DNA of 63,999 bases, filler included, from Dirinaria sp. TL-2023a (Eukaryota): NCBI GenBank assembly GCA_051941275.1. It is 21 parts of 21 records of this genome, joined end to end, with 100 filler letters (N's around TTAATTAATTAA, not from the genome) between each part and the next. Parts side by side here need not be neighbours in the genome. Positions count along the whole stretch, not along the records: positions 31,004 to 33,980 come from JAVEBF010002148.1; 20 more parts are not named here. The stretch is one strand, 5' to 3'. The notes below the pieces were generated by a model that saw nothing but the letters and a program-made list of their open reading frames with translations, was not told where the DNA came from and did not search any database. Shown piece by piece: positions 3,001-55,216 of the stretch (position 1 is the stretch's first letter; the number at the start of each line of letters is the position of its first letter). The translations under genes and the position numbers were made by a program.

Positions 3001-3018
3001 AGATTTTTGAGCTTAAAT
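1..3018. repeat. Degenerate AT-rich tandem/interspersed repeat with C->T hypermutation
   Basis: The motif tctcag(a/g)atc(a)agataatcttcgattc...agatcaa..caagacttgaaa..gtcca recurs near 1-70, 730-810, 1300-1380, 2350-2410 and 2865-2920; block 470-600 recurs at 2075-2225. CC/GG are scarce and TCGA abundant. Confidence 0.8.
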
Positions 3019-3118
3019 NNNNNNNNNNNNNNNNNNNNNNNNNNNNNNNNNNNNNNNNNNNNTTAATTAATTAANNNNNNNNNNNNNNNNNNNNNNNNNN
3101 NNNNNNNNNNNNNNNNNN
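3019..3118. other. Artificial contig-joining spacer (N44-TTAATTAATTAA-N44), first of 20
   Basis: Identical 100-nt linker with stops in all six frames; repeats at 6136, 9253, 12360, 15467, 18563, 21652, 24739, 27824, 30904, 33981, 37056, 40118, 43179, 46239, 49296, 52346, 55395, 58428, 61461. Contig lengths fall from about 3018 to about 2933. Confidence 0.98.
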
Positions 3119-8946: not shown

Positions 8947-9212
8947 GTTGATATCACACGCCTTGCAAGATAGCAGGGACTGGGTGCATGGGATGGGGAT
9001 ACTTCATAGTATGCGCTGTCGAGACAGAAATGGTAGTCAGTTACATCTACTTGAGTTGCTGGAGCTATGAGGAGTTTTAAGGGGGCTGTCAATATCCTAC
9101 ATTGACATCAACGCTGGCCTTTTAACCCTTTCCTTTCCTTTCCTGCCCCCCTTCTCCCACAATACCACTCGGCACTTGTGGATCAAACACGCCCGTATCT
9201 CCGATCTATGGG

Positions 9213-9250
<38 letters not shown>
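9213..9250 (+). repeat. Poly-A homopolymer at contig end
   Basis: About 38 consecutive A just before the spacer; likely cause of the assembly break. Confidence 0.9.
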
Positions 9251-9252
<2 letters not shown>

Positions 9253-9352
9253 NNNNNNNNNNNNNNNNNNNNNNNNNNNNNNNNNNNNNNNNNNNNTTAA
9301 TTAATTAANNNNNNNNNNNNNNNNNNNNNNNNNNNNNNNNNNNNNNNNNNNN

Positions 9353-10095
9353 CCTCCACCACCGCCTCCAGTACCGGCGCCGAGCCCATCCATTGCACCT
9401 CCACCCTGCCCTTGCATCTCCTGCATCATATCCCTTAGAATATTCTCACTAACACCACCTCCACTCAACGCCGGCGAATGCAGCGGGAGTATAGACCCTA
9501 TTTTCCAACCTCTCGGCACGGCAGGTGGTGGTATTGGCTCTTTCGGCGGCGGCATCCCTTGGATCCTCAATCTCAACGGCGAATCGGCAGTCGTAGGATG
9601 CGCAAGCAAGTGCGACGAAATGAGATTATATAGATGATGTTTATTCTTGATCCTCGCTGCACCACCTCTCCTGTCTTTCAGCCCGACCCTGACCCTTCCC
9701 GGATTCGCCCAGTCCTTGGGATGCATCTTGCCCGGCTCGAACACCGTGTCCAGCCCCAGTCCCTGACACGCATCCACAATCTCCCGAGCTAATGGGTTCT
9801 GGACTGCTTTCTTCATCCCCACGCGCCGGCCCTCTGCTTTTGTTCTCGAGGCATCGAAATATACAGGGTAAATGCATGCGTAGGATTTATGTCGTTCGGT
9901 GTCTGCGGCCGAGGGCGCGCGGAACTGGGGGTTTAGTTGCTCTGGGAGGTTTTGCGGGTTGAATAGGGTTGGGTTTTGAGATGAGGATGGGGGAGGTTGT
10001 CGCTGTGTGAGTTGTGGGATTAGGTCGGATGGGTCTTGCTCCGGGGGATCGGAGTCTGTGTCAGAGAGCTCTTCGATGCGGGCGTGGTGAGACAT
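9353..10095 (-). CDS. SEC65: Signal recognition particle subunit Sec65/SRP19 (3'-truncated by contig end)
   Basis: MSHHARIEE start; CIYPVYFDASRTKAEGRRV, EPGKMHPKDWANPGRVRV and ILPLHSPALSGGGVSEN are typical fungal Sec65 motifs. Confidence 0.92.
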
Positions 10096-10393
10096 TTTAA
10101 TATTGGGTTTCTGGTTCTTGAGAAGTTGGGAGTGTACTTACAACGTACAAATCTTAAGGCAATTCGATGAAGGTGATATGTTATAGGTTCTAGGGTTCGT
10201 CAAGGGCTTGAAGTAAATACATTTCCGGACTTCATTCCCGCATTTCAGTGACGACATCATCAGTCCTCGAAAAAATACATGAAGGTAAGCTAATAATCTT
10301 TCCTTGCGACTTTGATTTCGTATGTAGATCAGAAACTCATCACCAAAATTGTATCTACACTGTCTTCTACGCATCCTTGTCTTCCCATCAACC

Positions 10394-10693
10394 ATGTCCC
10401 GTCTCATCAATAGCTCCGCTCTCCGCGCTCTTCGTTCCTCCCAAACTCCTGCAATTCAAGTCCGACAATCTCGCTATTACCAAGTGCCGCACGAAACCAC
10501 TTTCGATCAAACGAAAAAGGGAAATGACCCCAAAGCAGAGGAAGATAAGAGTGCGAAGCCGCAGAGCAGCGATAAACCCGAATCGCACCCCATGAAGCAG
10601 CCAGATCCCCAGAAACCCCCCAGCAGCTCCACGGGCATTGAGACGGAAGGGCCAGGGGGATCGAAAGCTGGGAAGGGGAAAGGCGGAAGCTGA
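10394..10693 (+). CDS. Small hypothetical protein (99 aa), probably mitochondrially targeted
   Basis: ACC-ATG context; Arg/Ser-rich acid-free presequence MSRLINSSALRALRSSQTPAIQVRQSRYY, then a hydrophilic tail; divergent from SEC65 across about 300 bp. Confidence 0.6.
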   Translation: MSRLINSSALRALRSSQTPAIQVRQSRYYQVPHETTFDQTKKGNDPKAEEDKSAKPQSSDKPESHPMKQPDPQKPPSSSTGIETEGPGGSKAGKGKGGS

Positions 10694-11802
10694 GGCTAAA
10701 TCGAGGAGTAAGTCGAGAAATGTCTTGGGGAAGGGTATGTTGAATAAAGGCTCATGTATTCGAAAGCGAATGGCAGTAAAGCACTTTGCTTGGATTTTCT
10801 TCACGGTGCTGTCTGGTTGTAGAGTAGTCGACAAAGAAATCCGAATTGCTATTAGATGTATTGACTATTTTTCGTTGGATGTATTTGCCTGTCACTGAAG
10901 GGTTGAGTCGTAGCGACTCCTTTTTGAAACCGAGAGCTGTTTCACACGTGGCAGTGAAAGAAATAGAGATCTTGATCAAAGATATATCCTTTAAGCGAGG
11001 AGAATGCTTTGAGAGAAATCCAGATCATCATCATTCAGGGGGTTCAGAGGTAATGTTGGAGCTAGTCCTACCACACGGCGGAGCGGAACACTTCCAACTC
11101 ATAGCACCAATAACTAATTTCACCTTCTGCCAAGCACGGGTACAAGTACTGAAGAGCTCCAAATTTCGGTCAAGTCCCTCAGCAGCTCCAGCTCCAGGTA
11201 CATGGCATGATCCCTATCAAATCCCCGACGTTTTCAATCCAGCCGAGCTAGCGAGAATCTATAGCCATTGCTACGACTCATCACACCACGAATGCAAGTA
11301 CGCCTTCAGTGATCAACCGACTACTCCCGTCTATGAGAGTCAATTTTTAGGCTGGGACCAATCACCTTGATGCCTTTTACATTTCAAGCACCGATACCGG
11401 GCCTGTTGCAGTGTATTACAAGAAGATCCTTGAAGTGAGACGATCACACATGTACTGGCAAAAGAAACCTGAGTACAAAGGAATCTAGACAGCACAAGCT
11501 TTGATGATTATACCATTGATCACCACAATTCCTTCGCAAGAGGACTTGAACACAGGCAAAGTGAGATTTTTGTCATAAAGCAACGCCATCATCGTTCTCC
11601 ACGGGTTCTTGATTCCTGTATTGCCTGTTATTTATCATGAAATAATAGTTTTCACACAAGATGAGGCCCATTGCCACAATCTATGTTTGGTACTCATATA
11701 TCTCCTTCGAATAGAAAACTTTCGGATTAATGTACCCTCTTTGAAGAATCTCCAGTATCGCGTTGTATGCGGCCACGAGTGAAAAGCCACTAAGAAAATA
11801 CA

Positions 11803-13602: not shown

Positions 13603-15025
13603 TGCGAGAGTCACACTGCTCGGTGAGCCGATGCTTCAGGTCCTTAACCGATGGATTCGAGGAATGTTCGTGCTTGCGATTGAGACATTGGCAGGAACAG
13701 TCGAAACCGCAGAATATGGAAATACTTTATATCGCTAGAGACTTGGCGCGAATAGTATTCAGCGCAAGTATGAGCATTATTGGAAACGATCCGCCACGAG
13801 TATGCGCCGATGCGCTTAAAGCGCAGTGCCGAACCGTCTTGCTATAACATGTCGCGGCTCCAAATAGAAAATGGGGAACTCATGAGATCTATGAGAGAAG
13901 TTTGCAGAATTGCAAAATGGTCTACGTCTTGTGGAGGTAAACATAGTGAGTGCCGCGAGTATCGCTACAACTCAAAGAGAGAGACACTGGATAAACCTAC
14001 GAAACTCGTCCCATTCCGCTTTCTAGACAGACTGAGCGCTACAAAGAAGACTTGAGATGATTACGCGGCCTCTTTCGCACGGCCGGTCGCATCTGGAAGA
14101 ACTCCCAGCTTAGAAGCAGGCGTCATGAGAATTTTCGCCGTGGGAGCGTCGAAGCCTTGGTCATACATACAGTATATTTCTCCAACTGCGCAACAACGCA
14201 GACGATACTAGACGAGTGAACCTTTGCCTCACCAAGATACCAATCTCAAATTGGACGTACATGAGTCTCGCCTGATCCGTCACCAGATTCAAGTATGGGA
14301 CAAACTCAGAAGACGGTCAAATCCTCTGTATCAGATGTCATTGCACCGCGAACTGTACTCTCAATCGAGAGTTCCGGGGTCCTGGTCACGGTAAGGGCGA
14401 CAGAACTCGTGATGACCATGAAAGCAATAATGCAGATCCGAGCAACAATTGAAGTGGTGCTAGATCAAGTACTCCGTACTCCAACTCTCCCTGATCTTAA
14501 GCGTGAGTGAAAACCTTGGCGCTTCCGCTCTAGCGGCTTGGCGCCTCTCTAAGTCTGGTCAACGGTCTTGTTGAGTCTCTGTGTACTAATCGCACCCATG
14601 CCTTGTTGCTATCGCTATGATGCGTATCGGACTGGGATCTCTTCTGATTTGTTGCCAATCGTTGAATAATATCCCCCTTCAGACTTTCTATTTGTCCGAG
14701 GAAAGCTGTAATGTACAGAGAATGTGAGGTGCAAACCATCATATTCACTCCCAAAGCACAGCCCACAAAGTAACGTTGACTTTGTGCTGAACTCAGTAGT
14801 CCGTTACCATTCAGGCATCCAGCTTGTGGCATGGCTCTAGGTCAGAGCGGTATAGTGTAGTCCTGAGCCATGATACTGATAGGTTACCGCCCTATCGGAC
14901 TTTTACTATTCTTAGAAAGGCTGCACGTCAGGCAACGAGGCTGAAAGACCGACAAGAACAGAACTTGACTTCGCTTTCAATTTCTCCAAGATCAGCAAAG
15001 CAACGCCATCATTTCAAGTCCCAGA

Positions 15026-15466
15026 ATGGAAGGCTTGGCCACTGCAGCCAGTGTCGCCGGAGTCATCCAGCTGGTTGGCAGCGTGAGAAAGCTCTATGAA
15101 TTCTGGGACTCCATCAAGGATGCGCCAGAGGAGATCCGTGCCATTGCGCTCGACTTAAGACTGCTCTTGAGCGTCTTGGCTGAGATTGCTTCCGACGCAC
15201 AACATGCTGAGCCCGACCAGACACTAGAAGCGGTGATGGAGGCATGTCACTTCAAAGTCAAGGCGCTGAACGCCATCGTCAACGAGATAGAGCCCAACCT
15301 CGTGTCTTCTAGTAGTCTCGTAAAGAAATGGGCAGCTGTGAAGGGCGTTTTGAAAGCTAAGAAGATCAACAAATTCCGAGATTCTTTGGGGGAGTTGAAG
15401 ATTACGTTGATGCTAGAGCGGCAAACTCAGAACGAGTAAGTTCCATGCATCACTTCATTATGCTAG
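15026..15466 (+). CDS. HeLo-like/SesA-type N-terminal domain of a fungal NLR/STAND-like protein (partial)
   Basis: MEGLATAASVAGVIQL...KLYEFWDSIKDAPEEI...KKWAAVKGVL; GTAAGT donor near 15436; remainder cut by contig end. Confidence 0.7.
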
Positions 15467-15673: not shown

Positions 15674-18562
15674 ATGCCATCGGAGAGCGACAAGCCTCCG
15701 GTAAAACTGTCATTACCTCTAGTAAGAAGCCTTGAACGTACTTGTGCAACACTTATACTGATTACTTTGGCAGGAGTACCAGCAAGGTGAATTCGCGACC
15801 ACATTGCCCTTAGACCACGCGCTGATGATTTAGACCTCTTTTCCGAGCTCCGATCTGAAGATGAGCTCGTCGTACTCGCCCGCGGGTTGGGGCTTATCCG
15901 TGTCGTTACCAACCTTCTCCACTCCTACGATGTTATTGGGAATAATCTGATCGTTTTGGTTGGGGCTGATGACCGGGAAAATGGCTGGATTGGCGAAGGT
16001 TTGTGCTACAATATTCTCGGTGAGGTGCAGAGCTGACATAAATCAGCTCTCGCGGAGCATGCTGCGCTCAGCAGGGCGCCCAAAGCGCGCGGCCTCAGCC
16101 AAGTCAATACGGATGCTATGAGTGTGGCAACAAGGTAGCATTAGAAGCTGGCGGTAGGGCCAAGCGTGCTGATAGTCCTAGGGAGAAGATGTATTCTCAA
16201 GGCGGTATATTTAGTATAACCTCCAGAATTTTGGTTGTGGACCTTCTATCCAGTACGGATACCCTCCTATACCTGGACGTGGGAACTTGGCTGATAAGCT
16301 AGAGCTACTGAACCCGGAGACGGTTACTGGCTTGGTGGTACTTCATTCCGAGAGGTATGTCTTCCCAAACTTTTATTGAGCAAGCTTTAATCGACACTCA
16401 GAATTGTCGCAACCTCTACCGAAGCCTTCATTATACGTATCTTCCGGCAGATGAACAAAGTTGGCTTTCTGAAAGCTTTTTCGGACAATCCTGAACCTTT
16501 CACTTCAGGCTTTGCCCCCTTGTCATCAATGATGCGCAATCTCTTCCTTCGTAAACCGTCCTTGTGGCCTCGATTTCACGTCACTGTAGCGAAGTCGCTG
16601 GAGGGGCGAAAAAAGGCCGAGGTCATCGAGCTTGAGGTACCCATGACCGACAGCATGAAAGATATTCAGAATGCTGTCCTAGAGTGCGTGGAAGTCAGTA
16701 TCAGTGAATTGAGAAAGGCAGGAACAGGAATAGAATTGGATGACTGGACGTTGGATAGTGCGTTACATAAGAGTTTTGATGTCATTGTTCGGAGGCAGCT
16801 CGATCCTATCTGGCATCGGGTGAGCTATAGGACCCGGCAAATCGTCAATGATCTCACAGTTCTGCGCAGTATTCTCCAGTAGGGATTGCTTGAGAGATTA
16901 AGAGACCGTGGCTGATCACCTCCCTAGTGCACTTTTGACTTACGATGCAGTATCATTGAATAAGTATCTCGACACTATCCTGGCTGCGCATCAACCTCCA
17001 CCTGGTTCTAATCGCCAAAATCAATCCCCTTGGCTATTTCTTGATGCAGCAAATACCATCTTTGAGACCGCAAAGCGAAGAGTCTACACCGGGAAACCAA
17101 TGGAAGGCGAAAAACTTACGGCGCCGGAAGCCTTACCGGAGTCGCTACGACCTGTTCTAGAAGAGCAGCCAAAATGGTCTCTTCTTGCGGAGGTCCTGGA
17201 TGAAATCGAACGCGACAGTTACTTCAATCCCGTCCTTCAGGACGACTCCAATGGCACCATCCTGATCATGTGTTCTGACCAAAACACATGCCGACAGCTG
17301 CGAGAGTACGTACAAAACATGCATGTGCATCCGGCGCCTTTAGCTGAGGGGGAAGGTGAAGATGATGGCGAATTGGAGACGAAGCCATCCGCCACATTCA
17401 TGATGCGCAGAAAGCTACGAGAATATTTGGAGTGGAAGAAGAGTTTCGCACGGGTCAGCGCGTCAATTTTCACCGAAAACCAGAAGGCGCTCAATGGCTA
17501 CAAAGACCAGTCTGGTGTTAATGTATATCGTGGCAAAGGCCCTCCAAATAAGCGACGAAGAGTGCGTGGTGGCTCGGCGTCAGCAGCTGGCGGAGGCCGA
17601 CCTGTCAACGGTAATGTGCAGGTGGCGGAAGACAAAGCTTCTGAAATCGCCAGCATGATAGCAGAGATCCAGCCGACCGACTTGGACGGGGCTCACAAGG
17701 CAGAAATAGCCGTCGACTCACTCGATGATATGGAGGATTACTTTGAGCTCTACGAGATGAATGATGTGATAGTCGTTCACCCCTATGACGGAGACATGGA
17801 CGAGCACGTGCTTGAAGAAATCCGACCCCGATACGTTATAATGTATGAACCCGACGCAGCCTTCATACGGCGGATCGAGGTGTATCGGAGTTCGCACGAC
17901 AACCGCAATGTCCGGGTATACTTCATGTACTACGGCGGCTCTGTTGAAGAGCAGCGCTATCTCAGCGCCGTAAGAAAAGAGAAGGATGCCTTTACCAGAT
18001 TAATCAAAGAGAAAGGCGTACGTACATGCGTATCCTTTTATTGGCACTTTTGAATAACGTTCTCCAGAATATGTCCGTAACCATCACATTAGACGGCAAA
18101 GGCGCCGATGACCCGCAAGAGCAATTCCTACGAACGGTCAACACCCGTATCGCCGGCGGCGGCCGCTTAGCAGCCACGGCCGAACCTCCTCGGGTGGTAG
18201 TCGATGTTCGGGAGTTCCGCTCCTCCCTCCCGTCCCTCCTCCACGGGCACTCGATGCAAGTCATCCCCTGCATGCTGACAGTCGGGGACTACGTGCTCAC
18301 ACCACATATATGCATCGAGCGGAAATCGGTGCGCGACCTGATCGCCTCCTTCAAAAACGGCCGCCTGTTCACCCAGGCCGAAACCATGCTCCAGCACTAC
18401 AAAAGCCCAATGCTACTGATCGAATTCGACCAACACAAATCCTTCACCCTGGACCCGTTCGCCGACGCCTCCTCTTCCTCCTCCTCACTCCCTACCGCCG
18501 CGGACCTACAATCCAAAATCGGGCTCCTGACCCGCGCCGTCCCGCGCCTCAAAGTAATCTGG
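15674..18562 (+). CDS. RAD1: DNA repair endonuclease XPF (S. cerevisiae Rad1 / S. pombe Rad16), multi-exon, 3'-truncated
   Basis: Exon 1 MPSESDKPPVKLSLPL, 13-nt micro-exon EYQQ (15774-15786), ELVVLARGLG, GFLKAFSDNP, RVYFMYYGGSVEEQRYL; ERCC4 nuclease VVVDVREFRS...GDYVL...CIERKS. Confidence 0.95.
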
Positions 18563-24738: not shown

Positions 24739-25239
24739 NNNNNNNNNNNNNNNNNNNNNNNNNNNNNNNNNNNNNNNNNNNNTTAATTAATTAANNNNNN
24801 NNNNNNNNNNNNNNNNNNNNNNNNNNNNNNNNNNNNNNGTAATAGGAGGTGTAGGGGGGGGAGGATGGGAGATGAAGAGATGGGAGTGGAAATTCGGGAA
24901 CGCGATTTGTCGCGATTACATATTGGGCGTTGTGGGGAAGGATATGTATGGCATTGGTGAGGAGTAAGAGGGGTTCTAGGGTTTGATATTCAGGTATGGG
25001 GGTTGAAAGCTCGAGATTGTGCTGTGGAAGCTTTATGGCGCTGATTTATATATTTGGCAGAGAGATGGGAGCGCAAAGCACGGTCGATACTCTTCTAGCT
25101 AGTCTAACAACAAGCAATACCTGTGCAGCTCCGAAAGCACGAAAACAAATATGTCCTTCAAAAATGTGCGATATCAAGCGACGAATGGGAGCCATACGAT
25201 GAGACAAATGGAAAGAGCTGTCATATAGTCGTAGCAATC

Positions 25240-27823
25240 TTATTCGCCGTCTTTTTCCATCTCTTGCGAGAAGTAGCGCGTCATCTTATCAGCTGATAAG
25301 CTGTTAGCTACTCTCTTCGTAACAGGGTGAGAAGCACTCACCCTTCGATTTCGCAGCGGTGGTCTTGGTCGGACGACCTTTTCGGCGCTGGCTCAGTGTC
25401 ACACGTGTTTGTCTCTGAGACTGACTTTGAACCGATCTGGACCCGTAAGACTGGGAGTGGGTCCCTTGACCATGGGAGCGGGCTTGAGAATCAGGGATTG
25501 TTGGGCCTAGATTCTGACTCTTGGGGCGGAGGTCGTTCCCCTTCGAGCTCTCCGAGCCGGAAGCCAAGCCTGCACTATCCGCCTTACGCTTCATCGACCG
25601 AGCACTCTTAAGTATCCCCTTAGTTGGCATAGAGACTTTACTTTGCTGAGAATCACGCTTTGTAGCTACGTCTTCTGCCACGACTAAGTGTCGAGGGCTG
25701 ATGGTCGTGGGTTGGGTGAATTCTTGCGAACCTCGGGGTGTGTGCGGCGTGACCTGCGTTTCTGTATTTGCCGGCTCAGGTAAGTACTCGAGATCAGTCT
25801 CTAAGAAATCCGAAGGTAGATGACCTCTTAATGATGACGTATAACTGCTGTAGTGTTTCGTCGTCACAAGGCTGTCTTCGACGAAATTTACGGTCGGCTT
25901 CAGGGTCTGTGATCCTAGATTTGGCGTTGGCGGGAAAAGGTCCTCAAAATCACTTGAAGTACCAGAGCGACCCTCATTATTTTCATCTGGAGCAAAGCTA
26001 AGACGACCGCGTGAGGGAGTCGCCGTGTGTTGCTCTTGGTTAGAAGTGAGAGGTTCTGGTACGCTTCGAAATTGGGAGTCCTTGACTACAGTATGAGTCG
26101 ATTTATGCTCAAAAGTTTCAGGCTTTCGCTGCGACTGGGAATCGTCGGCCTCGTGACGAGAAGACTGTAGACAACTTCGATCTGCCTTACGCCTATCTTT
26201 CGGTGGAAAACAATTCTCGTGTTGCTGCGCCTCAACGACTGTGTCTGAGCACACTTGAGCGGCGTTTCGGCTTCGCAAAATATCCAATGCTTTACGAGCT
26301 TCATTGGCTTTGCGGGTCTGTATTGCTAAACTATCTTCTGCAGCTTGTCGAGCTTCGCTAGCTTGGCGGGCTTCTGCAACTTTCTCCAAATTCTCGGTTT
26401 CAAGGTTCCTGATCTTAGCTTGCGTGGCTTCCAGTTCGTAGATACACTTTCTAAACGCCAGTTGAACTTTCGATAATTCAGTATCACTTTCCTCAATGCG
26501 AACTTCCAAACCGGCTACTGCAGCTCTCAGACTTTCAGCCTCTGCTGTGACCTCGGCGAGCGACTGCACACGATCTTGAGCTGAAACTTCGGCTTCACTC
26601 TTGCCCTTTTGAAGCTCAACGAGCACGCCGAGTCGTGCCTGTGCCAATTCAACTGCATCCGACTTTTCCTTTCGCAATCTTTCCAACTCTTGTGCTTCTT
26701 TCGCAATGTGACCTTCGAGGGAAGCTAATTTGTCGTTCAATTTGTGAACCTCTGCACGATGTTCAGCTTCGTAAGTACTTTGATCAAGCTGAGCCTTAGT
26801 AAGTAGCTCAGCTCTCTTGCCTTCTTGATCCGCAGTAAGACGCTCGATGAAGGCAGCATGCGCCTCTGCTACGCGGGTTGCTCTAGCGCGCTCTTCTCCC
26901 AATTGACTATTTACCACTTCCAGTTGTAGCTGGACGTGGGAGTAATCTTCAAACTTGGCTTGTAGCAGCTTCGATGCCTCGGTATTTGTTTCATGCAATA
27001 CCTGTATCTCTTGTTGGATGGCTTTGTTCTGCATGTCTATATCTCGAAGCCGATTCAGGGTCTCTGGGGAGTCACGCGGCTGCTTGCGGAGAGTGACGGC
27101 CTCCATCTCCAGAGCATTGACTTTATGCTTTAGGGAAGCTTCCATATCTTGCGCGGTGGCTATTCTTTGGCGAGCTTCCAGCAACGCAGCGTCGGATGTC
27201 TTAACTCTTTCCTCCAGGACAGCCTTCGCTATGCAATGCTCCGTGATTTGGTCACTCAAGGATTGCTCCGATTTGATATTTTCACGCAATAGTTGGAAGT
27301 CCTTCTTGACCTTATTGACCAAGTCTTGAGGATCTATGTTGAGGGAATGGATCTCGTTTCGACAAGATTGCACGGCGTCGGTAATGCTTACCTTGATTAG
27401 CGTTGTGTGATTGGAATTCGATGCACAGGAAAACCTACCCGTCGGCGGATGCCCTGATAGATGTCTCAAGAAGCCGAATATCTTCAGTAGTAACATTTCC
27501 CGAGTCCCGTAGCATGTTGACCGTAGCGGTACATTCGCACATGGTTGCTTTAAGCTCCTCACAGGAGCCGGACTCCTCATTTTGTCGTAGAGCTTCCAGC
27601 TTGCTGAAAATGCTGTTCAGCTTGGCAATGAAATGGTTACCTTGAGCTGCGGATGCTTCTGCGGAGTTCTGATGACCGATGCCAATCTTCTCAATTTCAG
27701 CCAGTATCAGATCATTTCTGTCACGCTCGTGCGAAAGTGAGCGCGCGCTCTCTTGCATCTGGGCCTGCTGAGTTGTAATTGTGTGACGCTGCACATGTAG
27801 CTCATGCTGGGCTTCTTTCAATG
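25240..27823 (-). CDS. Long coiled-coil protein with disordered S/T/Q-rich basic tail (5'-truncated)
   Basis: About 450 aa of heptad-rich E/Q/K/L sequence; probable introns near 27387-27438 and 25294-25341; last exon ...DKMTRYFSQEMEKDGE*. Confidence 0.7.
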
Positions 27824-29653: not shown

Positions 29654-31432
29654 CCTGAACCGCAGCCTTCGCTGGTCTCAAGAAAATCCGAAGTCGCGCG
29701 TTATTGGGGTTTCTCAATCAAGATCCAAACCTGCAAATTATCGAAAAAATGATGAAAGAAAAATCCGATGATGGCAGGGGTCATTCATGAGAGGAGAACA
29801 TCGCGCGGAGAAATTTATGACTTTCTCCAAAATGATCAATAATGCATCACAGCACAAGCGAAGATGGAACGATGTCAGAGAGTGAGATGGCAGACAGAAA
29901 GAGACAGCGCTTGAAAGCGCATTAATTCTTCCGCTTGCCAAGCGCCCCAAGATACAAACCAGCGTCATAGATCGACATTTCTCTGAATACCATCTCAGTA
30001 GCTGCTTGGCGTCGCTTCGAGCTTCTCTTCGCCGCTGTGCAGCATTAATATTGTTGAAGTCTAAGGCTCAACCGCATCAAAAGCATCCGAGTTCTTTCGA
30101 CGCCTAGGCAAGAGTGTAGTCTCCTGCAATGTATCTTTTGAGTGATGTACTCACTAAAGAAATCTCTTGTCATGCGACTCGAACTATACTCTAAAGATGG
30201 AATAGATTCTGGGAAGAGCATGTCCGTCCTTTCGTGAAAGAAGTGCAGAGTGAACTTGGAGACAGCATCGTATCGAGAAGTTGGATATGTCATTCGAGAA
30301 TAATGGAGAAGAGCTGTTGGTATGTAATAGAGCGCAGCCCTAAGGTATTCGTGTGAACCAGAATTATGTAGAAACTAAACTTTTCTTGGTTAGTCGCTTA
30401 CTGCCCGCTTACCTCAGCAAAACCTCTTCTGTTAACTAAAGGTCAACCGAAAGATCACCTAAAGCCCAACTGACTTGCCCAATGCCCACCTGTAGCGCCC
30501 GTACAGTAGGTATCTAAGTGGGCAGTAATCGGCTAACTCGGCTAGGAAATTCTCATTCTTCTGGGCCGCACGAGTAGCATGCTGAGATGATTTTACTCTC
30601 ATCAAGACGAATTCGTACCAGGGGAGGATTGACCCCTCCATGTGAAACGAGTGAGCACCGCCCTTATCCTCATGGATGGCACAGTCGTTCAATCTACGCC
30701 CTGTCGAAACCAATCAAACTCAGAACATGTCTCGGTCAGCAAGACACAAAAGCCAATTGGCTAAAGACCGGCTCGGAGTCTTCGCGAATCTTCTGGAAAC
30801 CTTGAGTTTGAAGCATTCGCTTTCTTTAGTGATTCCTTTCTCATTTCTTCTCGCTTCTTGCTCATCGAGTTCAGATCTGTCGGCGCTTGCAACAAGATTC
30901 TTTNNNNNNNNNNNNNNNNNNNNNNNNNNNNNNNNNNNNNNNNNNNNTTAATTAATTAANNNNNNNNNNNNNNNNNNNNNNNNNNNNNNNNNNNNNNNNN
31001 NNNGAACGAGCATACGTCTCATTCTCTGTCGTGCGATCACCTCTATTCAGAGCTTCTCAAACTCTTTCGTGCGACGATGTCTATTCGAAGATTGCTCTTT
31101 CGAAGTTGTCGACTTACACTGCGGCGACATGATGAATAAATTGAAGCTCATTTGCAAGAATTTACTGTACTATCTTAGCAACCTGACTCGAGGATTGGCG
31201 AAAGCAATTTCTTCAGAGTACAGTCCGCCGGCTGATTCTGAAGGGATAGCTAGTATTATGGCAGGGGGCTGAGCTGCATAGATAGATATGATATTGACGA
31301 GAATACTAGCTATGCAGATCTAAGATACATGGGGGCGAGGTTTATGTAGAAACCTCGCTCGCTAGCGCTTCCGAGGTTCCTCCGAGGGAGCCAACACTAC
31401 TATCTAATAACACCACGCTAGATCCGTGACAC

Positions 31433-33980
31433 TGAGGTATATCGATGTCAAGAGTCGATTACTTAAGCAGAGAGTCACGTGATAAGTAGACGAAATAGAC
31501 GATCTTGACGAGCATCTATCGGATCTATCGAGCTAGCGATGATAGACGAACTAGACAGATGTCTATCATGTCTATCATGACTAGAAGTAGACGAAATAGA
31601 CGAATTAGACGAGTGTCTATCATGTCTATCATGTCTATCGCAATGTGTATATAAAAACTCAACACGACGCTCTTCTGACATCGTGTTCAACTTCATTTAA
31701 CTTGTCTACTACTGTTACAAGTACTAAGTACCTTGTCTTGTGAAATACTTGCCATATTTCTAAGAGACACCCGTTGTTTCTTGACAGATCTCTTCAACAG
31801 ATCAAATTCTAAGTCTTATATTAGAATCTTATTCTAGATGATAGTAGCGAACGCAACACTTTGAACACTCTTAGAATGTCTATCTCAGAACAACGTAACT
31901 TTGCTTCAAACATCATCGACTCAGCAACATCTCGCATTTCAATGATCAACGCAGATCGTAATCATGACGACAGAGTCAAAATCAACAAATTCGACGTCTA
32001 TAAAGAAGAGCGCGAAGATCTCGACGATTGAATCATTCAGATGAAGTTATACTTTGTATTTCATTCAGTGACTAATAATCAGAAGACGATCTTTGCTTCT
32101 ACGTTTCTTCGAGAAAAAGCTCAACACTGAATCAAATCTAAGCTAAAGAAAAGACTTGAGAATGAAAACGATACTGACGATAATATCTTCGCGTCATTCG
32201 ATAACTTCAAAACAGTCATTAAAAGAATCTTTGAGATCTCTAATGAAAAATTTATCGTCGAACGAGTTGTACAGCACTTTAAACAGACTAAATTAGTCTC
32301 AGATTACGCAGCACGATTTCAAGAATATGTCGAACTTACAAATTGAAATTATAGTGCGTTACAAACTATGTTCAAACGAAAGCTGAAGAATACGATCAAG
32401 AATGAATTGATGCGCGATGAAAGAGAATATGAGTCACTCGAAGAGTTGATAAAAATCGTCATCGATCTTGATGACAAGCTGTATAAACGAGTCATGAAAA
32501 AACGTTTCGACAACGAATCACGAGAAAAAACTATTGTCTCTATGTATAGATTCGTTGAGAACGATCGAAAGAGAAATAACATGAGCAGAAACAGACAACA
32601 ATCTTACTATAAAGCTATGCCTATGAAGTTAGATCTCATCGAACGCAAGAAGAAAAATCTCAGAAATAAGCAAGACAAAATCAACAAAACATGCTATTCG
32701 TGTGACAAATTAGATCACTTCGCAAAAAATTGTCGAACTAGAAACGCGATATCTAGAGAACAATTGAATATAATGTTAAAGAAAGTATTTGACGATTGAG
32801 AAAAAATCTGCGACGATGATGCAAGCTCGACAGAAAGCGCAGAATCAGCGTCGAAGAAAGAGTACTATCATGTGAAGAACTTCACAGTACTTCAACAAGC
32901 TCTGAACGAGACAGCATCAGACGATGCATCTGCCTCGACTCAGAAGATTAACACGATTATCAGAGAGCAACAGCAAGACTTCGACAATGAATTCGAATGA
33001 GATAACGACGTACCTCGAGAATTAGAGATTGAAGAATTCGAACAGCAACTGCGAGCAGCAGAAATCAGTGTGACAGACACGATCGAGCGAATTCTAAACA
33101 GTGATGCAACTCAGAAACGAGAGATTTCGAGACGAACGAACACATCAACGTTAAATCGAGAAAACGCGATTTTAAAAAAACTTCACGACTGAAACATATG
33201 TTGCAAACATCATTGTTGAATGCATCAACAAATGAGATGTGACGAGAAAAACAACGATTTAGTACATGATGCACTCGACGATATGAGATTATCAACTGAA
33301 CAACGATATGAAGATGTCAATTGTCGATTAACATGCATCACATGCGTCTCGAACGAGATACATCGACAAAAGAAATATGAAAGTTAAGTTTCTCGTGAAT
33401 TTATAATCACGATGCAACAAGCAATCAAGAAAGAAAAATCTGAACACTCAAAAATTTCAGCAATTCGATGCATCGAGAGAGAGTGCATAATTCATCGACA
33501 AAAAAAAATCGAACATGCAGAATTGCATTGATCAGATTGCTATGACGACGCGTGCATAATTCATTACGAAGAGAAATCAGAAACAGACTGATTCTCTAGA
33601 GAGCGACAACAGAGAAACTCGAAAAACGACAAGACTCTTCAGTAAAGAGCGTACTAAAGAAGTGCAATGCAATAGTTCAAAAAGTTATTAACGCATCAGA
33701 GCAAGCATGTATTTTCGACACGTTTATATGAATAAACGAAAATCGACTAAGAGCAATAATTGATTCGAGAGCGATCGAAAATTTTATGACACAACATCAG
33801 ACAGAACGATGTAAGTTCGCTGTTCAGACTAAAAATGAAGTGTACGATTTAGTAATCGTCGACGAAAGCTTACTAGAAAGAAACAAAAAAAGAGTGAATC
33901 AAAAAACTATATCACTTATGACAGCTATTCAACATCATCGCGAGAAACTTATTTTTGATATTGTAAACATGATCAGACAC
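31433..33980 (+). mobile_element. Ty3/gypsy LTR retrotransposon, 5' part (putative LTR, gag, protease), inactivated by hypermutation
   Basis: Putative LTR TGAGG(31433)..CAACA(~31798); gag from ATG 31876 with TGA at Trp sites; zinc knuckle CYSCDKLDHFAKNC (32692-32733); HxxLH*xxCYDDxC motif; protease IDS(R)A(I)(E)NF at 33759 in the -1 frame. Confidence 0.88.
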
Positions 33981-34080
33981 NNNNNNNNNNNNNNNNNNNN
34001 NNNNNNNNNNNNNNNNNNNNNNNNTTAATTAATTAANNNNNNNNNNNNNNNNNNNNNNNNNNNNNNNNNNNNNNNNNNNN

Positions 34081-37055: not shown

Positions 37056-37367
37056 NNNNNNNNNNNNNNNNNNNNNNNNNNNNNNNNNNNNNNNNNNNNT
37101 TAATTAATTAANNNNNNNNNNNNNNNNNNNNNNNNNNNNNNNNNNNNNNNNNNNNGTCTTCTTCGTCTGGAAAGCGCATTTCCTACCTCAGGTTTTGTCG
37201 GTGTGTCTGCGCTGCTCGTTGACCCATAGCCCAGCCTTGCTGTCAGCCCATGTCTTACATCTTCCAAAAGCAAGTAGGTCGTGACTCCTTATTCTCATAA
37301 ATTTATCTCCTATACACTTCTCCATCGTACACCTTGAAAAAGTTGGAATATACTTCAATACTCTAGC

Positions 37368-39336
37368 ATGCTGTCTAAATTTGTTAACTCAAGATTGACC
37401 GGCGCAATGTACTTACTAGCGCTTCTCCATCTTTTCAGCATTCCTGTCCTTGCTAGGCTCGGCGCTAGCACACAGTGCTGTAATCTGGCCTTACAGAACT
37501 CTGCCTATGTCGACAAAAGCATACCGCAGAGCGAGTACCGATGCGATCAAGTGTATAGTCCACATCTATCCCCAGCTCCAGCACTATCAGTCTCCACCAA
37601 ATGGTGCCTGGATCATTGTGGAGGATATCATTTGTTTTCCCCCAACGAAACTGCCGCTTGGGCAAACCCACTAGCACAGTATATCCTTCCAGCTGTCGTT
37701 TTCAGTATGACCATACCTCGCCGCTTGGCCTTCGAACCCCCAAGATGGTTTTTCGACTTCAGTCCCCATCACGCAAACGGCCTAATTAAGGCCATGTTTT
37801 CTTTGTGCATAGCGGGCTTGGTAGTGACGCTTGATACTGCCATGTGGATATGCACGATCATGACTGCTTCAGGCCCGTTTCTGTTCAGCGGCCTCGTTGA
37901 GGCTGTTTTGGACTATCGGATCATCAAAAACCTTGTTCACAGCCATACGCCGCGCGGCAAGGATCGTCCGGTAGGCTTGAGCAGAAACGCGCGTGTAGAA
38001 TTGTTGACTGCAGTTCTTGCCGGTAACCTGGCTGTCAAAGGCGTGTGGGCTGATCCCCAGAAGGAGTTGAGGAGGGCCTTGGACATCCGCCTACAGCCAG
38101 AGGAAGTGGAAGTACGTTTGCGAGCGATGTTGGCTTGCCAGTACCCTTTCGGGGCTGCGGTAGGCGGCCCAATACTTTTCTACTTAGGCTCATTCGCGTA
38201 TTGCATTGGCACCCTACGGACCACCAAAGGCGACGAGGATACGGCGTTGGGCCTTGCATTCGGCATTTGGTGGATGAACATTGTGCACGCCGCGGCGATA
38301 AGCGGTCTACTGCTAGCCAGCAACAACCCGAGCACAGCGGCAGCGATTGTAGGACGTTACCGAAAGAAGATGGACTTGCAGGATCGACTGGACCTGGCGA
38401 ATGAATCTCTCGAGTTGGAAGATAGGATACAAGCCCGCGTGGAAGCGTGGTCAAGGCTCTCATTAACCTACAAAGCCCGCTATGAACCAGCCTGGATGTG
38501 GAATAGAGGCAAGAGTAAGGTTTTTTGGCTTCAGAGGACTGCAGCCTGGCAGCAGCCCTGGTTTCGTGAAAGGATTGAAATGACAGCCTCAGGCTGGTTG
38601 TTTCTTACTGTGGTTGCTTACTTCTTGGTCTTGCTCCCGTGCAGCCTTGCCATCTGGATCAACTATAGTACTCCTCCAGTTGGCCCAGGATGTCGATCCA
38701 TGACCATTATTGCATATGGCTGTTCTCAATTCACATTTGTTGTTCTCTCGGCATGGAGTCATTTCAAGGCTTCCCAAACGAAGGACTATTGGGAACGACA
38801 CAGATGGCTTGCCCGCTTAAGACAAAAATGGATAGGGATCTTGATCAGTGTTGTCTTCCTACTTCCAGCCTGGATCACTGCTGTCTTCACCACCTTCGCC
38901 GGCACGCTGATGCAAATCAGTGGAATCTACCAGAACTGTTACTGTGAGTCTACTGGGTTCTGGTCCTTCCCTGAAGGCTCAACAGTCACGTTATCTACCG
39001 ATAGCGAGTATGAGAGACACTCTAGCCAATATTGGAACCAAGCAGGTTACGCCGCTCTGTTCTTCCTTGCCGGTGTAAGTGAATTTTGGAATTTCGAGTT
39101 AATTATGTTGGGCTACTTTCCAGCCTTGAGACTGCCATGAGCATCATATGCTTTGACTAAAAGTCCCACACTCAGTTCGGCAAATTTAGTTGTTGATGCT
39201 GATTCAACTGCAGGTCACGTATCTAGGGTGGTGGGGGCAACGCTACCTACGCGAGAAATTCATTGAGCGAGTGAGAGATTTGGTTGACCCCCAGCATCTC
39301 CGAACATCGCATACATACAAGCTCGGACCTGTGTGA
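37368..39336 (+). CDS. Hypothetical multi-pass membrane protein with Cys-rich extracellular N-terminus; join(37368..39073,39214..39336)
   Basis: Long ORF with signal peptide and many TM helices; GTAAGT donor at 39074 and GCTGAT..CAG acceptor at 39213 continue the frame as VTYLGWWGQRYLR. Confidence 0.75.
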
Positions 39337-52445: not shown

Positions 52446-55216
52446 TCCGATCTTTGGACAACCAAGATAAGCATCAACCACAACAGCATCCGCGATTACA
52501 TTCGGTCAACGAGTAATCCTACAATAGACATAAGTCCCAATGATGCCCATAAGCACATTGCTCTTACCTGTTTGCGCACCCTCTCCAACAAACTGCCACT
52601 GGCGGATGGGATCCCACTCCCGAACCAGAAACGGTTGCAAGAGTATGCCGCATCGAACTATCTCTTTCATGTCGGGCAGCTTGAGCCTTCTAGAATGTCT
52701 CAGATAGACATTGAAACGGTTGCAGACCTGCTCGTAGATACTCTCCACAATAGAGAGTCATTAGCAAGAGTCATCGAAGCCAGGGACCAGAGTGATGTAT
52801 TCCTAGCAACATATTTCTCAAGCGAAATCCAATTGAACATACAGCAGTGGATTGCAAGGGCTTGGACACAAGAAGTGATTCCAGCAGAAATGAATCCGCC
52901 AGCGTTGTCCATGGATTCGTTATTGGCGCCGATGGCTAATACGATAGCAGAGCTCTGGCTGCAAGAGACTCCTTCAAAACTGGGCAGACTATATGTCAAT
53001 TTTTATATTGCGTTTCTCCACGCATATCAGTGTATGCGGGATGTAAGTCATCACTCTTTTGTTTCTGCTTTATCTAGACAACAAATTCAGCATATGCCGT
53101 TCGCTTCATGATAGGATACTGTGCAGGATCCTTCCAAATATGCTTTGGACCCGTTCGGCTTGAACTTGCGGCTAAACCCCAGCAATATGAGCATGTGCTG
53201 TAGAAGCCTTTGCTATACTGACCCTTCAGTGGCGGGACGCTTGATGTTTGCCATTCTCGAGCCTTCTATGCTAACCGGTCTCGTTAGACTCAAGCAATAA
53301 ACGTGAAAGGAGGTGAGAAAATACCCAAAATTATATCCGTATTCGACGTCGACAGGTTCCGTCATGAAGAAATATACCTTGTGGCACTACGCACAGAACT
53401 TCCGCGGAATTCGCAGTGGCATAGCGCCGTTGGTCTTACACTCAGCTGGAACAATTATGACTCTGAGGCTGCTGGTTTGCTCAGCAAAGCGATAGAGTTA
53501 GATCATAATAACTCGGCTGCTCACTATGGTTTGTGTAACTCCTTGTGCTGTTTGCGTGACTACGTCAAATCCATTGAGATGGGTATTGCATTTCTAGCTT
53601 TAGAGCCGATCGAGACGCCCATGACCAACAGCTGTTGGTATTGGATGGAGTTTGCCGCTCAACGACTCGACATCAATGACAGACCGATTCTGGAACTGGC
53701 ACGGAACAAGCTAGGGGCACACACAAAATCCGCGCGAGGCATATCATTCAGCCTCAAAGCATTATGGAGTCAAGATCGCTTCGCCGACATTTTGGCTTTT
53801 GTCGGTGAACTTCGAGAACAAGAGTACAGCCAGCCCAATCATAATCGTTTGTATCAACTATTGCCAGACTTACCGCATAATATCTTCCATTACATTGCAT
53901 TATCAGCAGCGAAGGCTCGTCAGAAACGACAGGTATTGGAAATTATTGATGAGTTGGTCCAATTTGCGGAAAGCGCAAATGATTTCCGCAGAAAGCGTAT
54001 TGCCAAGTACATCCAGGCGCTGATACAATTCAGCGCTGATCGAATGTCGCAAGAGGGATTGACATTATTTGAGGAACTTCGATCTGATCCAGAAAGCGGT
54101 GGTAGGAACATTTCCGGCTTCAGCTTTTTATCCTCGATTAACGAATATTTGGGCTCCCTCTACTTCGAAAAGGCCATGGAGGCAAGAAGGAGTGGCGCAA
54201 ACTCATGGCTTTGGGTTGAGAAATTGGAGGAGACACAAATCAATCCTAGTCCTTCTCTCGCTCGCCAACGCGGTCGAACCACGGAAGCGCCGACCAAAAG
54301 CTCAGTGGATCTGAAATTGGCGCTCTGGTATCGTTTAGAAGGGGAGAACGAGCTTTGTAAGAGGTTGTTGAAACCAATCTTCCAGCAAGCGATCCATATT
54401 CTACGGGATGATAACGTTCACAACGATGCGACAGGATATCGTATTCTCGCGGCTGTTCTTTTTCGAGCAGGCAATACTGAGCAAGCTATAGCTGCATTTA
54501 TACCATTGCTTTTGCCATTCTCTAGGCAACAGTCGCGTAACAGAAATCTAGGAGATGAAGCAGTACCATATTTCACCAGTTCAAACCACGGCAGCTTGGG
54601 ACCAGACCGAATGAAGCAGGCTGCTACAGGAGTAAAAAGCTTGGAAGAGGATCTAAGGCCTCTACACATTGACCAGCGGGAAATCCCGCACGGAGAATCA
54701 AATCAGCACAGTACGAAAGAAGCTTCGGAAGACGACCTGTCGCGCAGTGCCACTGAAAAGACTTTCAGTGACGGACTGCCACCTGTATTGCAAATTGATA
54801 CGGATTACTCGACAGTGGTATGCGCTGCAGGATGCACACGTCGGATCATTCATGAACTATGGGTCTGCGAATACTGTGAACATGATTGGCCACAACTAAT
54901 GTGTGGGGAATGCCTACAAGGTCTCAAAACTGGCCGATTCACTATCTATGGTCGGCTATGCGAACGGTATCATCCCTATCATAGAGTCTATCCGATCGAC
55001 GAACAGTTGAAAGATAGAGCAACGAAGAATGTCCAAGGGAGAACCTTACCTCGAGAAGAGTGGTTGAGGGAATTGGAGGACAATTGGATGTTCCCGTCTT
55101 CAAGTGGTCGTGAATACAGCAATCTGAACGACTCCACCCAAGAAGCCAGCGCTGTGGTAAGTTCTAAAGATGAAGGCGAAGACGAACGCGAAGATGAGAA
55201 GAACGGTAACAAGTGA
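52446..55216 (+). CDS. C-terminal part of an NLR-like protein: TPR-like helical repeats plus ZZ-like zinc finger
   Basis: LQEYAASNYLFH post-NACHT-like helix; TPR-like LSKAIELDHNNSAAHYGL; CAAGC...VCEYCE...MCGECL...CERYHPY; intron from about 53043. Confidence 0.62.

Follow-up and report, generated by a model that had tools for sequence, protein, structure and literature searches.

RIP is the textbook genome defence of fungi, and the indices and tools for its detection presuppose that it prefers CpA. In Neurospora, CpC is the least used context of RIP, and a survey of RIP in ascomycetes has reportedly been made by Clutterbuck (2011). The preference of canonical RIP for CpA is stated in the available text of two papers (PMC12543289; PMC2621366), and, according to the accessible part of the former, a kingdom-wide pattern-agnostic screen from 2025, RIP-like defences share this preference and occur in few clades. 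The Ty3/gypsy element described here resembles RIP of Neurospora crassa and other Pezizomycotina in that the C:G to T:A transitions are nearly exclusive and fall on both strands, and in that the changes appear to end sharply at the borders of transposons and repeats, sparing genes and leaving graded copies of which the old relics are AT-rich. It departs from canonical RIP in the order of contexts, CpC coming first, then CpA and CpT, and CpG least, and in being negative at its present stage by the standard RIP indices.

Lineage-specific C-to-T hypermutation of repeats outside CpA has been described in basidiomycetes, where a TpCpG or CpG bias is reported, in the text available, for Microbotryum, other Pucciniomycotina and Rhizoctonia solani AG8 (PMC4014442; PMC3318451). 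A non-CpA, lineage-specific context is common to those cases and the present one, but here CpG is the most protected dinucleotide (per-site rates of 0.08 for TCG and 0.05 for CpG) and the host looks ascomycete. APOBEC3G edits the 3′ C of CC before integration and in minus-strand cDNA only, turning GG into AG and TGG into TAG. The element shares with its targets the dinucleotide CC and the killing of a retroelement by stops at Trp, whereas here the 5′ C is changed (TGG to TGA), both strands are hit and, in related elements, the changes follow integration.

Among lichen-forming fungi (Cladonia rangiformis, Xanthoria and Endocarpon), RIP is described in the accessible text of PMC12542154 as a TE-confined loss of GC with sharp borders and with later insertions less affected. 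TE-confined GC loss, sharp borders and milder younger insertions recur in the present case, but those accounts, as far as their available text goes, score GC content or standard indices and report no dinucleotide context; neither "dinucleotide" nor "CpC" occurs in the accessible text of PMC12542154. In the available portions of RIP-related full texts, "CpC" was either absent or stood for a strain code, author initials, a table row or the colour key of a figure legend, and topical searches of open full-text literature found no report of CpC-dominant RIP.

Structure of the element

The analysed DNA, hereafter the window, is a stretch of 63,999 nucleotides made up of 21 short contigs separated by N spacers. 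One contig carries the 5′ half of a degenerate Ty3/gypsy element, comprising the 5′ LTR, gag and the start of the protease, with RT and integrase beyond the contig end. The following features are present:

31004 to 31445, no strand: flank outside the element, with near-normal CC and GG and no fall-off toward the boundary
31446 to 31862, plus strand: probable 5′ LTR, with a presumed start and a supported end
31876 to 33384, plus strand: gag pseudogene of 503 codons, open only with 7 TGA codons read as Trp
32686 to 32736, plus strand: mutated CCHC zinc knuckle CYSCDKLDHFAKNC (PF00098, E 0.0011, 19.4 bits, below the 20.8-bit cut-off)
33648 to 33980, plus strand: start of the pol protease (..IIDSRAIENF..), in a frame different from gag and truncated by the contig end (weak match to PF09668, Asp_protease, E 0.037, 14.6 bits against a 26-bit cut-off)

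Within the LTR lie a TATAAAA, near 31651, and two direct copies of a short sequence (31484–31529 and 31585–31630, 82.6% identical). Its end, ...GCAACA followed by CTTTGAACAC..AGAATG, aligns by eye with ...GTAACA CTTTGAACACCCTAAGAATG of the intact relatives L002 and L029, while its start was set at the TG adjoining the step in CC and GG and is not proven, since the contig holds a single LTR. The gag frame, closed by TAA at 33385 and followed by stops in all three frames, matches Retrotrans_gag (PF03732) with an E of 8.8e-9 over residues 73–170 (32092–32385) and has 36 homologues at E<=1e-3, the best at 1.1e-103. Besides PF03732, the copy is placed in Ty3/gypsy by its resemblance to full 6.4-kb elements that carry two LTRs, which amounts to about 65% in DNA over parts of their length and to about 40% identity in protein. 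The knuckle and protease matches fall below threshold because these regions are mutated. Self-comparison of the window turned up the element only once in the 21 contigs; an Rfam search of the window gave 0 matches, and Tandem Repeats Finder gave 0 rows for positions 1–6135.

Dinucleotide composition and its boundary

The initial annotation had singled out 31876–33980 as nearly devoid of CC and GG but rich in CA/TG and CG, and the counts bear this out. The 2105 bases of this interval (A 852, T 491, G 386, C 376) contain 3 CC (observed/expected 0.04) and 0 GG (0.00), so little on either strand that both are evidently affected, as had been claimed. Enriched are TC (145; 1.65), GA (242; 1.55) and CG (119; 1.73), with CT (87; 0.99), AG (160; 1.02), CA (166; 1.09) and TG (107; 1.19) near normal. 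Richness in AT alone was rejected as an explanation by a shuffle test, which was also one of the two checks by which the annotation could have been refuted: in 2000 mononucleotide shuffles the mean of CC+GG was 137.7 (sd 9.9) and never fell below 109, against the 3 observed. The depleted stretch extends further than proposed: it sets in at about 31446 and reaches as far as the end of the contig (33980), with 7 CC and 1 GG in its whole length.

The prediction that standard RIP indices would be blind to such an element also proved right, with TpA/ApT at 0.54, (CpA+TpG)/(ApC+GpT) at 1.21 and the composite at -0.66, values that all count as "no RIP". The CpA preference of canonical RIP was found neither in the window, with CA and TG at 1.09 and 1.19, nor in related elements, with 0.48–0.56 changes per site at CpC versus 0.14–0.24 at CpA. 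Likewise, no CpG loss (TCG to TTG, of the Pucciniomycotina type or from decay of CpG methylation) was seen in the window, where CpG stands at 1.73, and with CpG enriched both the basidiomycete TpCpG process and CpG-methylation decay were rejected.

The depletion begins abruptly. The 442 bases of the flank (31004–31445) contain 11 CC and 20 GG, and CC+GG per 50 bp runs 1, 0, 1, 3, 5, 5, 6, 7 and 3 before dropping to 0–2 within the element. The step lies at about 31446, no more than about 10 bp from where the LTR probably starts, the last GG of the flank being at 31436. The element's contig has a CC/GG observed/expected of 0.17/0.19, while both ratios are 0.80–1.17 in 17 of the 21 contigs; besides the contig at 1–3018, described below, two further contigs have CC at 0.69.

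Target base and coding damage

Each of the seven stops that interrupt the gag frame is a TGA in the place of a Trp, and none is TAG; TGA stands in four of the four conserved Trp columns. None of the six conserved Gly columns is kept (GAA twice, GAC twice, AAG and CAT), four having become GAN and none AGN, and neither of the two conserved Pro columns survives. The change of Trp to TGA and of conserved Gly to Asp or Glu identifies the 5′ C of CpC as the mutated base, in agreement with the original proposal. Every residue change that the initial annotation had listed is found in the sequence: W52 and W85 are the TGA codons of LDD*IIQ and AQH*, the knuckle is CYSCDKLDHFAKNC where relatives have CGKxxHFA (in full CYSCGKxxHFA(R/K)(D/N)C), NKFD stands against NKPD or NKLD, LRE against LRG and PMKLD against PMELD, and the protease starts with DSRAIENF. 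The codon changes are all of the GG to GA or CC to TC type. The gag frame contains 0 Gly and 2 Pro. The share of Gly declines from 5.9% among intact relatives through 2.2% in those closest to the window copy to 0.0% in that copy itself, and the share of Pro from 5.0% through 1.6% to 0.4%. The direction of mutation, its target base, its presence on both strands, its saturation and its sharp boundary are all observed in the window copy itself.

A second repeat family

Another repeat family in the window is biased in the same way:

1 to 3018, no strand: unrelated, non-coding repeat region on another contig, with the same mutational bias and a strand asymmetry

This contig did not match the Ty3 loci at E 1e-10. 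Its observed/expected values are 0.43 for CC, 0.81 for GG, 1.76 for TC and 1.45 for GA, and its internal repeats are diverged (67–79% identity). Among eight aligned repeat pairs, which overlap and are not independent, CpC differs at 20 of 27 sites and GpG at 24 of 33, against 0.19–0.42 in other contexts, with a transition:transversion ratio of only 172:83 in these overlapping pairs.

Related elements in other fungi

Related loci were gathered from public rock-community metagenomes, where 612 pattern matches gave 512 confirmed relatives, of which the best 80 were kept; they come from eight independent assemblies. These loci belong to other organisms and share about 65% DNA identity with the window element, which is itself a single copy with one LTR. 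The signature is graded among the 80, from kilobase stretches with CC/GG observed/expected of 0.0–0.1 through others at 0.3–0.6 to others near 1, and an alignment of 43 copies likewise runs from a GC of 0.49 with CC/GG near 1 to a GC of 0.29 with CC/GG at 0.1–0.2. Relative to two unmutated copies, the per-site rates in this alignment are 0.277 for C>T and 0.310 for G>A, versus 0.062 for T>C and 0.051 for A>G. By context, C>T reaches 0.558 at CpC, 0.237 at CpA, 0.192 at CpT and 0.127 at CpG, and G>A at GpG reaches 0.594.

Comparison of the two LTRs within each of 40 single elements gave 1347 transitions and 55 transversions (1136 and 26 without two doubtful pairs). The per-site rates are 0.48 at CpC, 0.49 at GpG, 0.14 at CpA, 0.05 at CpG and 0.19 at CpT, the last of which may be inflated by hidden CpC sites mutated in both LTRs; by trinucleotide they are 0.58 for ACC, 0.56 for TCC, 0.44 for CCC, 0.31 for GCC and 0.08 for TCG. 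The LTRs of one related element differ by 5–16%, nearly all by transitions, and the mutations therefore arose after integration, on both strands and almost only as transitions; the window copy, having one LTR, shows the action on both strands only. Close copies agree, with transitions making up 359 of 359 differences between L010 and L065 and 335 of 335 between L003 and L007, 210 of the latter at CpC or GpG. The directional C:G to T:A change is thus found both in the relatives and in the codon changes of the window. Family alignments dominated by CpA or CpG transitions would have spoken against the initial annotation, and in the related elements it is CpC that dominates (0.558 and 0.48 per site); the claimed specificity for CpC, however, has to be softened to a preference, as CpA and CpT follow in the relatives.

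Where less-mutated copies nest in saturated relics, CC and GG step exactly at the LTR ends. The graded severity and the younger copies within saturated relics are, like the timing, directly observed in these fungi. The old relics, described by composition only, have 13–28% GC with losses in all non-CpG contexts and a CpG observed/expected of 1.9–3.3, and with TGA read as W one ORF of at least 200 aa was found in 14 regions of saturated relics. By the threshold set, flanks were normal in 2 of 40 related elements, boundary behaviour in the relatives being judged from per-locus profiles.

Origin of the depletion

The window copy appears to be a Ty3/gypsy element inactivated after integration by RIP-type hypermutation with a preference of CpC >> CpA/CpT > CpG, a reading to which we assign a probability of roughly 0.7. 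In such a process, cytosines of repeated DNA would be converted to thymine on both strands, most strongly at CpC (CpC to TpC, or GpG to GpA on the opposite strand) and most weakly at CpG. The window copy would represent a stage at which the CpC class is saturated with CpA and CpT still largely intact, and would therefore lack CC and GG and carry an excess of TC/GA and of CpG. Repeats would presumably be recognised by homology, the process would be active in the sexual cycle, and the enzyme may be a RID/DIM-2-type cytosine methyltransferase-like protein with an altered flanking-base preference. Two unrelated repeat families are affected, 17 of 21 contigs are normal and sharp steps occur at LTR ends; a repeat-directed process would fit the sharp element borders, the unaffected genes and the two unrelated families. 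Against this, near-intact multi-copy relatives exist (L001 and L002, 95.2% identical), copies that an efficient repeat-triggered process ought to have struck; of their 267 differences, however, 256 are already transitions.

Transitions on both strands, confinement to TEs, age-graded severity and spared genes would likewise result from heterochromatin-linked deamination without homology sensing, in which CpC-biased non-CG methylation of silent TEs, for example by a DIM-2-type enzyme, is followed by slow decay of 5-methylcytosine as a by-product of silencing. The near-intact young copies adjoining saturated relics (L002) and the decay of old relics in all non-CpG contexts suit this explanation, which we nevertheless consider unlikely, as 335–359 transitions with 0 transversions in close pairs lie far above background and are hard to reach by spontaneous deamination, and as the steps fall exactly at LTR ends with no spreading gradients. 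In mechanism it overlaps with the DIM-2 branch of RIP. Strict dinucleotide specificity and saturation also recall deaminase hotspots, and an AID/APOBEC-like cytidine deaminase might act on genomic TE DNA as a defence, preferring the 5′ C of CC; however, such enzymes require single-stranded DNA and usually leave strand-biased tracks, whereas here the strands are equally saturated, the window yields no gene evidence for one, and RID-dependent RIP is, in the accessible text of PMC12543289, the known route in the probable host group, making this origin quite improbable.

Editing of the cDNA during reverse transcription, in the manner of APOBEC3G, followed by integration of the hypermutated copy would explain the sharp stop at the boundary of what is a retroelement with a single copy in the window. 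The initial annotation had argued against it from the target base, and the data go further in the same direction: TGG became TGA in 7 of 7 cases and GGN became GAN, which points to the 5′ and not the 3′ C, plus-strand CC is depleted as much as GG, the LTR pairs of relatives diverged after integration, and a non-coding repeat on the contig at 1–3018 has the same bias, so that we hold such editing to be very improbable. Finally, a native composition, selection against CC and GG, or an assembly or sequencing artefact would dispense with mutation altogether, but the gene is broken (7 Trp turned into stops, knuckle and protease motifs destroyed, no Gly left), the adjoining flank is of normal composition and the signature recurs in contigs of eight independent public metagenome assemblies, which leaves this explanation a negligible chance.

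Host

The window encodes Vps33 (575 bits to PDB 4jc8, 291 bits to the VPS33A chain 4bx9 and 118 bits to the Vps33 chain 7zu0) and a SesA domain, which together indicate that the host probably belongs to Pezizomycotina, a group with known RIP. For the contig carrying the element the assignment is indirect, because the contigs of the window may stem from more than one organism. An intact gag relative in a protein atlas offers only a weak "Basidiomycota" lead, which counts for little beside host genes of ascomycete appearance; Vps33 has no usable taxonomy there. No RID, DIM-2 or deaminase gene was found in the window, nor any methyltransferase domain among its 42 ORFs. In the available text of a rock-community announcement, a cited title names lecanoromycetes and dothideomycetes as the dominant groups of the fungal communities (PMC7171226).

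Implications

It is in our estimate an even question whether there is a clade of filamentous ascomycetes, perhaps living on rock or forming lichens, whose RIP has an inverted flanking-base specificity, striking CpC first and almost exclusively while CpG is protected. With such a specificity, its TEs would pass through a long stage without CC or GG and rich in CpG, and would therefore appear unaffected in every survey based on TpA/ApT. CC+GG observed/expected and (TpC+GpA)/(CpT+ApG) offer a simple signature for screening. A process that exhausts CpC first contradicts the generalisation of a shared CpA preference as worded in the accessible text of PMC12543289. The outcome of the process is CpG-rich DNA without Gly and Pro codons and not TpA-rich DNA, which alters the stops and amino-acid changes brought about in neighbouring or duplicated genes. 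If such a clade exists, the context preference of RID-type enzymes would be evolvable and the taxonomic spread of RIP would have been underestimated. The system also lends itself to a comparison by which the part of a RID/DIM-2-type enzyme that governs the choice of the flanking base could be sought.

A Ty3/gypsy element almost devoid of CC and GG

The window of 63,999 bases is made up of 21 contigs of 2.4–3.0 kb each in falling length order, with spacers of 44 N, a 12-base AT motif and 44 N (e.g. 3019-3118 and 33981-34080); genes across spacers are unlinked. On the contig 31004-33980, the plus strand from about 31446 to 33980 reads as the 5′ half of a Ty3/gypsy element, with the following features:

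31876-33384, plus strand: gag frame, open for 503 codons if TGA is read as Trp; seven TGA, otherwise stop-free
Within the gag frame 31876-33384, plus strand: Retrotrans_gag (PF03732, E 8.8e-9)
In the gag region, plus strand: CCHC knuckle, sub-threshold (E 0.0011)
Downstream of gag in another frame, plus strand: weak aspartic-protease start (E 0.037), broken off by the contig end

The gag has 36 homologues (best E 1.1e-103, identity 29–57%), and in a by-eye alignment the 5′ LTR end and gag start read ...GCAACA CTTTGAACAC..AGAATG versus ...GTAACA CTTTGAACACCCTAAGAATG in intact relatives. The probable LTR carries a short direct repeat (31484-31529 / 31585-31630, 82.6% identity) adjoined by runs of a GTCTATCAT unit, and a repeated block lies in the same region of the LTR in two related loci, L003 and L007.

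The near-absence of CC and GG described in the initial annotation is borne out: the 2105 bases of 31876-33980 hold three CC (obs/exp 0.04) and no GG (0.00), with TC (1.65) and GA (1.55) raised, CA (1.09) and TG (1.19) near normal and CG at 1.73; CT (0.99) and AG (1.02), the mirror images of TC and GA, stay level. The loss cannot be put down to low GC: in 2000 shuffles of the same bases, CC+GG averaged 137.7 ± 9.9 and never fell below 109. The true onset lies near 31446; from there to 33980 we find 7 CC and 1 GG, and the 442 bases upstream contain 11 CC and 20 GG without fall-off toward the border. In 17 of the 21 contigs CC and GG both stand at 0.80–1.17; mild CC depletion is seen at 3119-6135 and 24839-27823 (0.69 in both, GG 0.81 and 0.87, respectively). 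The standard RIP indices (TpA/ApT, (CpA+TpG)/(ApC+GpT) and the composite) over the element are 0.54, 1.21 and -0.66, all on the "not RIP" side.

The contig 1-3018 holds a second repeat family of the window, non-coding, internally repeated (segments 67–79% alike) and unrelated to the Ty3 loci, with CC (0.43) more depleted than GG (0.81), and TC at 1.76 and GA at 1.45. Eight overlapping repeat pairs, which offer few sites, show 172 transitions to 83 transversions, and differ at 20/27 restored CpC and 24/33 GpG sites; the other counts are 17/60 for CpA, 11/59 for CpG and 19/73 for CpT, and on the G side 22/57 for ApG, 25/60 for CpG and 9/38 for TpG. Within this contig, mutation is much lighter in 1740-2240 than in the corresponding copy at 370-617.

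The altered base

Where Trp is shared by at least 70% of homologues, all four alignment columns read TGA in the window and none reads TAG. Conserved Gly is retained in 0 of 6 positions of the window gag (four GAA or GAC, one AAG, one CAT) and conserved Pro in 0 of 2, and the 15 Gly columns invariant among five intact relatives have become E (4), D (4), K (3) and four others, with no G left. Since in TGG→TGA and GGN→GAN the altered G follows a G, the target on the opposite strand is a C preceding a C, and the rise of TC/GA without one of CT/AG indicates the same 5′ C of CpC; this rule, proposed initially, is correct. APOBEC3G edits the 3′ C, a rule that does not fit the 5′ C altered in the window codons.

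Gly makes up 0.0% and Pro 0.4% of the window gag protein, whereas intact relatives have 5.9% and 5.0%; values in its closest database relatives lie in between (2.2% and 1.6%), which implies graded damage nearer this lineage too. In these closest relatives (P0002-P0009, P0011 and P0027) the frames are open and Trp is kept, but the proteins are Gly/Pro-poor, with many Gly→Glu/Asp and Pro→Ser/Leu/Phe changes; they are partly mutated copies which gene callers report as proteins.

Context preference in related elements

When metagenome contigs were scanned using the gag alignment, 612 stretches matched the pattern and 512 of them were confirmed as relatives; the best 80, which were kept, lie on contigs from eight assemblies of one public rock-community metagenome set. 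Their approximately 65% DNA identity to the window element places them in other organisms; a fused HisHF gene flanking one locus (558 bits to PDB 1jvn) fits a fungus. Among these best 80 of 512, CC/GG obs/exp ranges from kilobases at 0.0–0.1 through 0.3–0.6 to near 1.

For the alignment, 43 non-redundant copies were used, each spanning 5.5 kb or more of a 6.4-kb reference; 10 duplicate and 27 shorter loci were omitted. The copies form a continuum from GC 0.46–0.49 with CC/GG 0.92–1.03 (L001, L002, L006) to GC 0.29–0.33 with CC/GG 0.11–0.25, along which CpG obs/exp climbs from 0.8 to 1.9. With two unmutated copies as ancestor stand-in, per-site rates in the other 40 were 0.277 for C>T and 0.310 for G>A, and 0.062 and 0.051 for T>C and A>G. 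By context, C>T was 0.558 at CpC, 0.237 at CpA, 0.192 at CpT and 0.127 at CpG, and G>A was 0.594 at GpG, 0.26 at ApG, 0.23 at TpG and 0.166 at CpG. The relatives' alignment is dominated by CpC transitions rather than by those at CpA or CpG, which would have refuted the initial reading.

Timing, borders and order of attack

Both LTRs of an element are identical at integration. Between the LTRs of 40 elements there are 780 C/T and 567 A/G differences, i.e. 1347 transitions, and 55 transversions (1136 and 26 without two probably untrue pairs). In restored contexts the rates are 249/518 (0.48) for CpC and 139/285 (0.49) for GpG, then 0.19 for CpT, 0.14 for CpA and 0.05 for CpG, and by trinucleotide 0.58 for ACC, 0.56 for TCC, 0.44 for CCC, 0.31 for GCC and 0.30 for TCA. 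Of the three CC surviving in 31876-33980, all in CCT, two are in GCC, which agrees with GCC being the least mutable of the CpC trinucleotides in LTR pairs. Close copies differ by transitions in 359/359 (L010/L065), 335/335 (L003/L007, 210 at CpC/GpG) and 575/578 (L023/L029) cases. Together with the LTR spectra, this indicates a process that hits both strands of DNA already integrated and produces transitions almost exclusively. L001 and L002 are 95.2% identical with 256 of 267 differences being transitions, so even "intact" copies are already being hit.

At element ends (L071, L076, L045) CC+GG per 100 bp falls from 10–15 to 0 in one step; in L010 it rises from 0 to 8–13 where a less-mutated copy lies within a saturated relic, and L021 has the opposite step. 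In L002, a near-unmutated full element (5611-11549; GC 0.46, CC/GG near 1) directly adjoins a saturated relic (1-5000; GC 0.21, 6 CC+GG per 5 kb). The oldest relics have GC 0.13–0.28, 0–14 CC+GG per 1.5–5.9 kb, CpG at 1.9–3.3 and GpC at 1.6–2.5, and only at this stage does the standard RIP composite become weakly positive (0.10–0.42). Leftover C/G in L065:1-5400, L013:500-5400, L059:1000-5400 and 11 similar relics is almost confined to CpG and GpC, and at 13–28% GC this means that CpG is apparently spared; the sparing seems to be active, the reverse of methylation-driven CpG decay. CpC is attacked first, CpA and CpT follow, and CpG is the last to go; the window element has reached the point of CpC exhaustion, with other contexts mostly intact.

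Host group

The Vps33 fragment of the window matches PDB chain 4jc8, which we take to be the Chaetomium thermophilum protein, at 575 bits, against 291 for VPS33A (4bx9, presumably mammalian) and 118 for Vps33 (7zu0, presumably yeast). Ordinary housekeeping genes also occur, as does SesA, a domain typical of NLR proteins in filamentous ascomycetes. Individual features are:

14969-15436, plus strand: SesA / PigL_N N-terminal domain, of the type borne by fungal NACHT NTPases; possibly an NLR-type gene broken off by the contig end
25307-27616, minus strand: open frame of 770 codons, Pfam-negative (contig 24839-27823)

The plus-strand frames 37338-39137 (600 codons), 53288-55213 (642), 16902-18050 (383) and 7840-8943 (368) match no Pfam family at E 1e-4. 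The window genes point to Pezizomycotina; the element's contig has no host gene of its own.

A probable RIP-type process with an inverted context preference

Decay of CpC-methylated heterochromatin, independent of homology, is hard to square with close copies that differ by hundreds of transitions and zero transversions. A true deaminase active on genomic DNA is a rival, but both strands are hit equally and the window carries no deaminase gene, while editing of retroelement cDNA would alter another base and is opposed by the damage to both strands and the divergence of LTRs. Artefact or selection, in turn, is at odds with the wrecked coding sequence.

RIP with an inverted context preference is the best-fitting explanation. 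The likeness to RIP includes directional C:G→T:A change on both strands of integrated DNA, an apparent restriction to repeats, sharp borders, copies damaged to differing degrees, an AT-rich end state and a host apparently in a fungal group where RIP is known. The RIP-like, CpC-targeting reading of the initial annotation is thus supported, with the host assignment of the element's contig being indirect. Repeats would be recognised by homology and mutated before meiosis, and a RID/DIM-2-type protein with an altered flanking-base preference may be the enzyme.

Canonical RIP prefers CpA, according to a 2025 kingdom-wide k-mer screen, which concludes that CpA preference is common to RIP-like defences (PMC12543289), whereas the relatives here are hit at CpC first; basidiomycete variants prefer CpG or TpCpG according to another report (PMC4014442). 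In the passages covered, RIP papers on lichen fungi score GC content or standard indices without context analysis, and those of an Ascomycota-wide RIP survey and a Cryomyces paper contain no CpC report. No report of CpC-dominant RIP was found by topical full-text searches of literature lying mostly outside subscription journals. A CpC-first hypermutation is of real interest to students of fungal genome defence.
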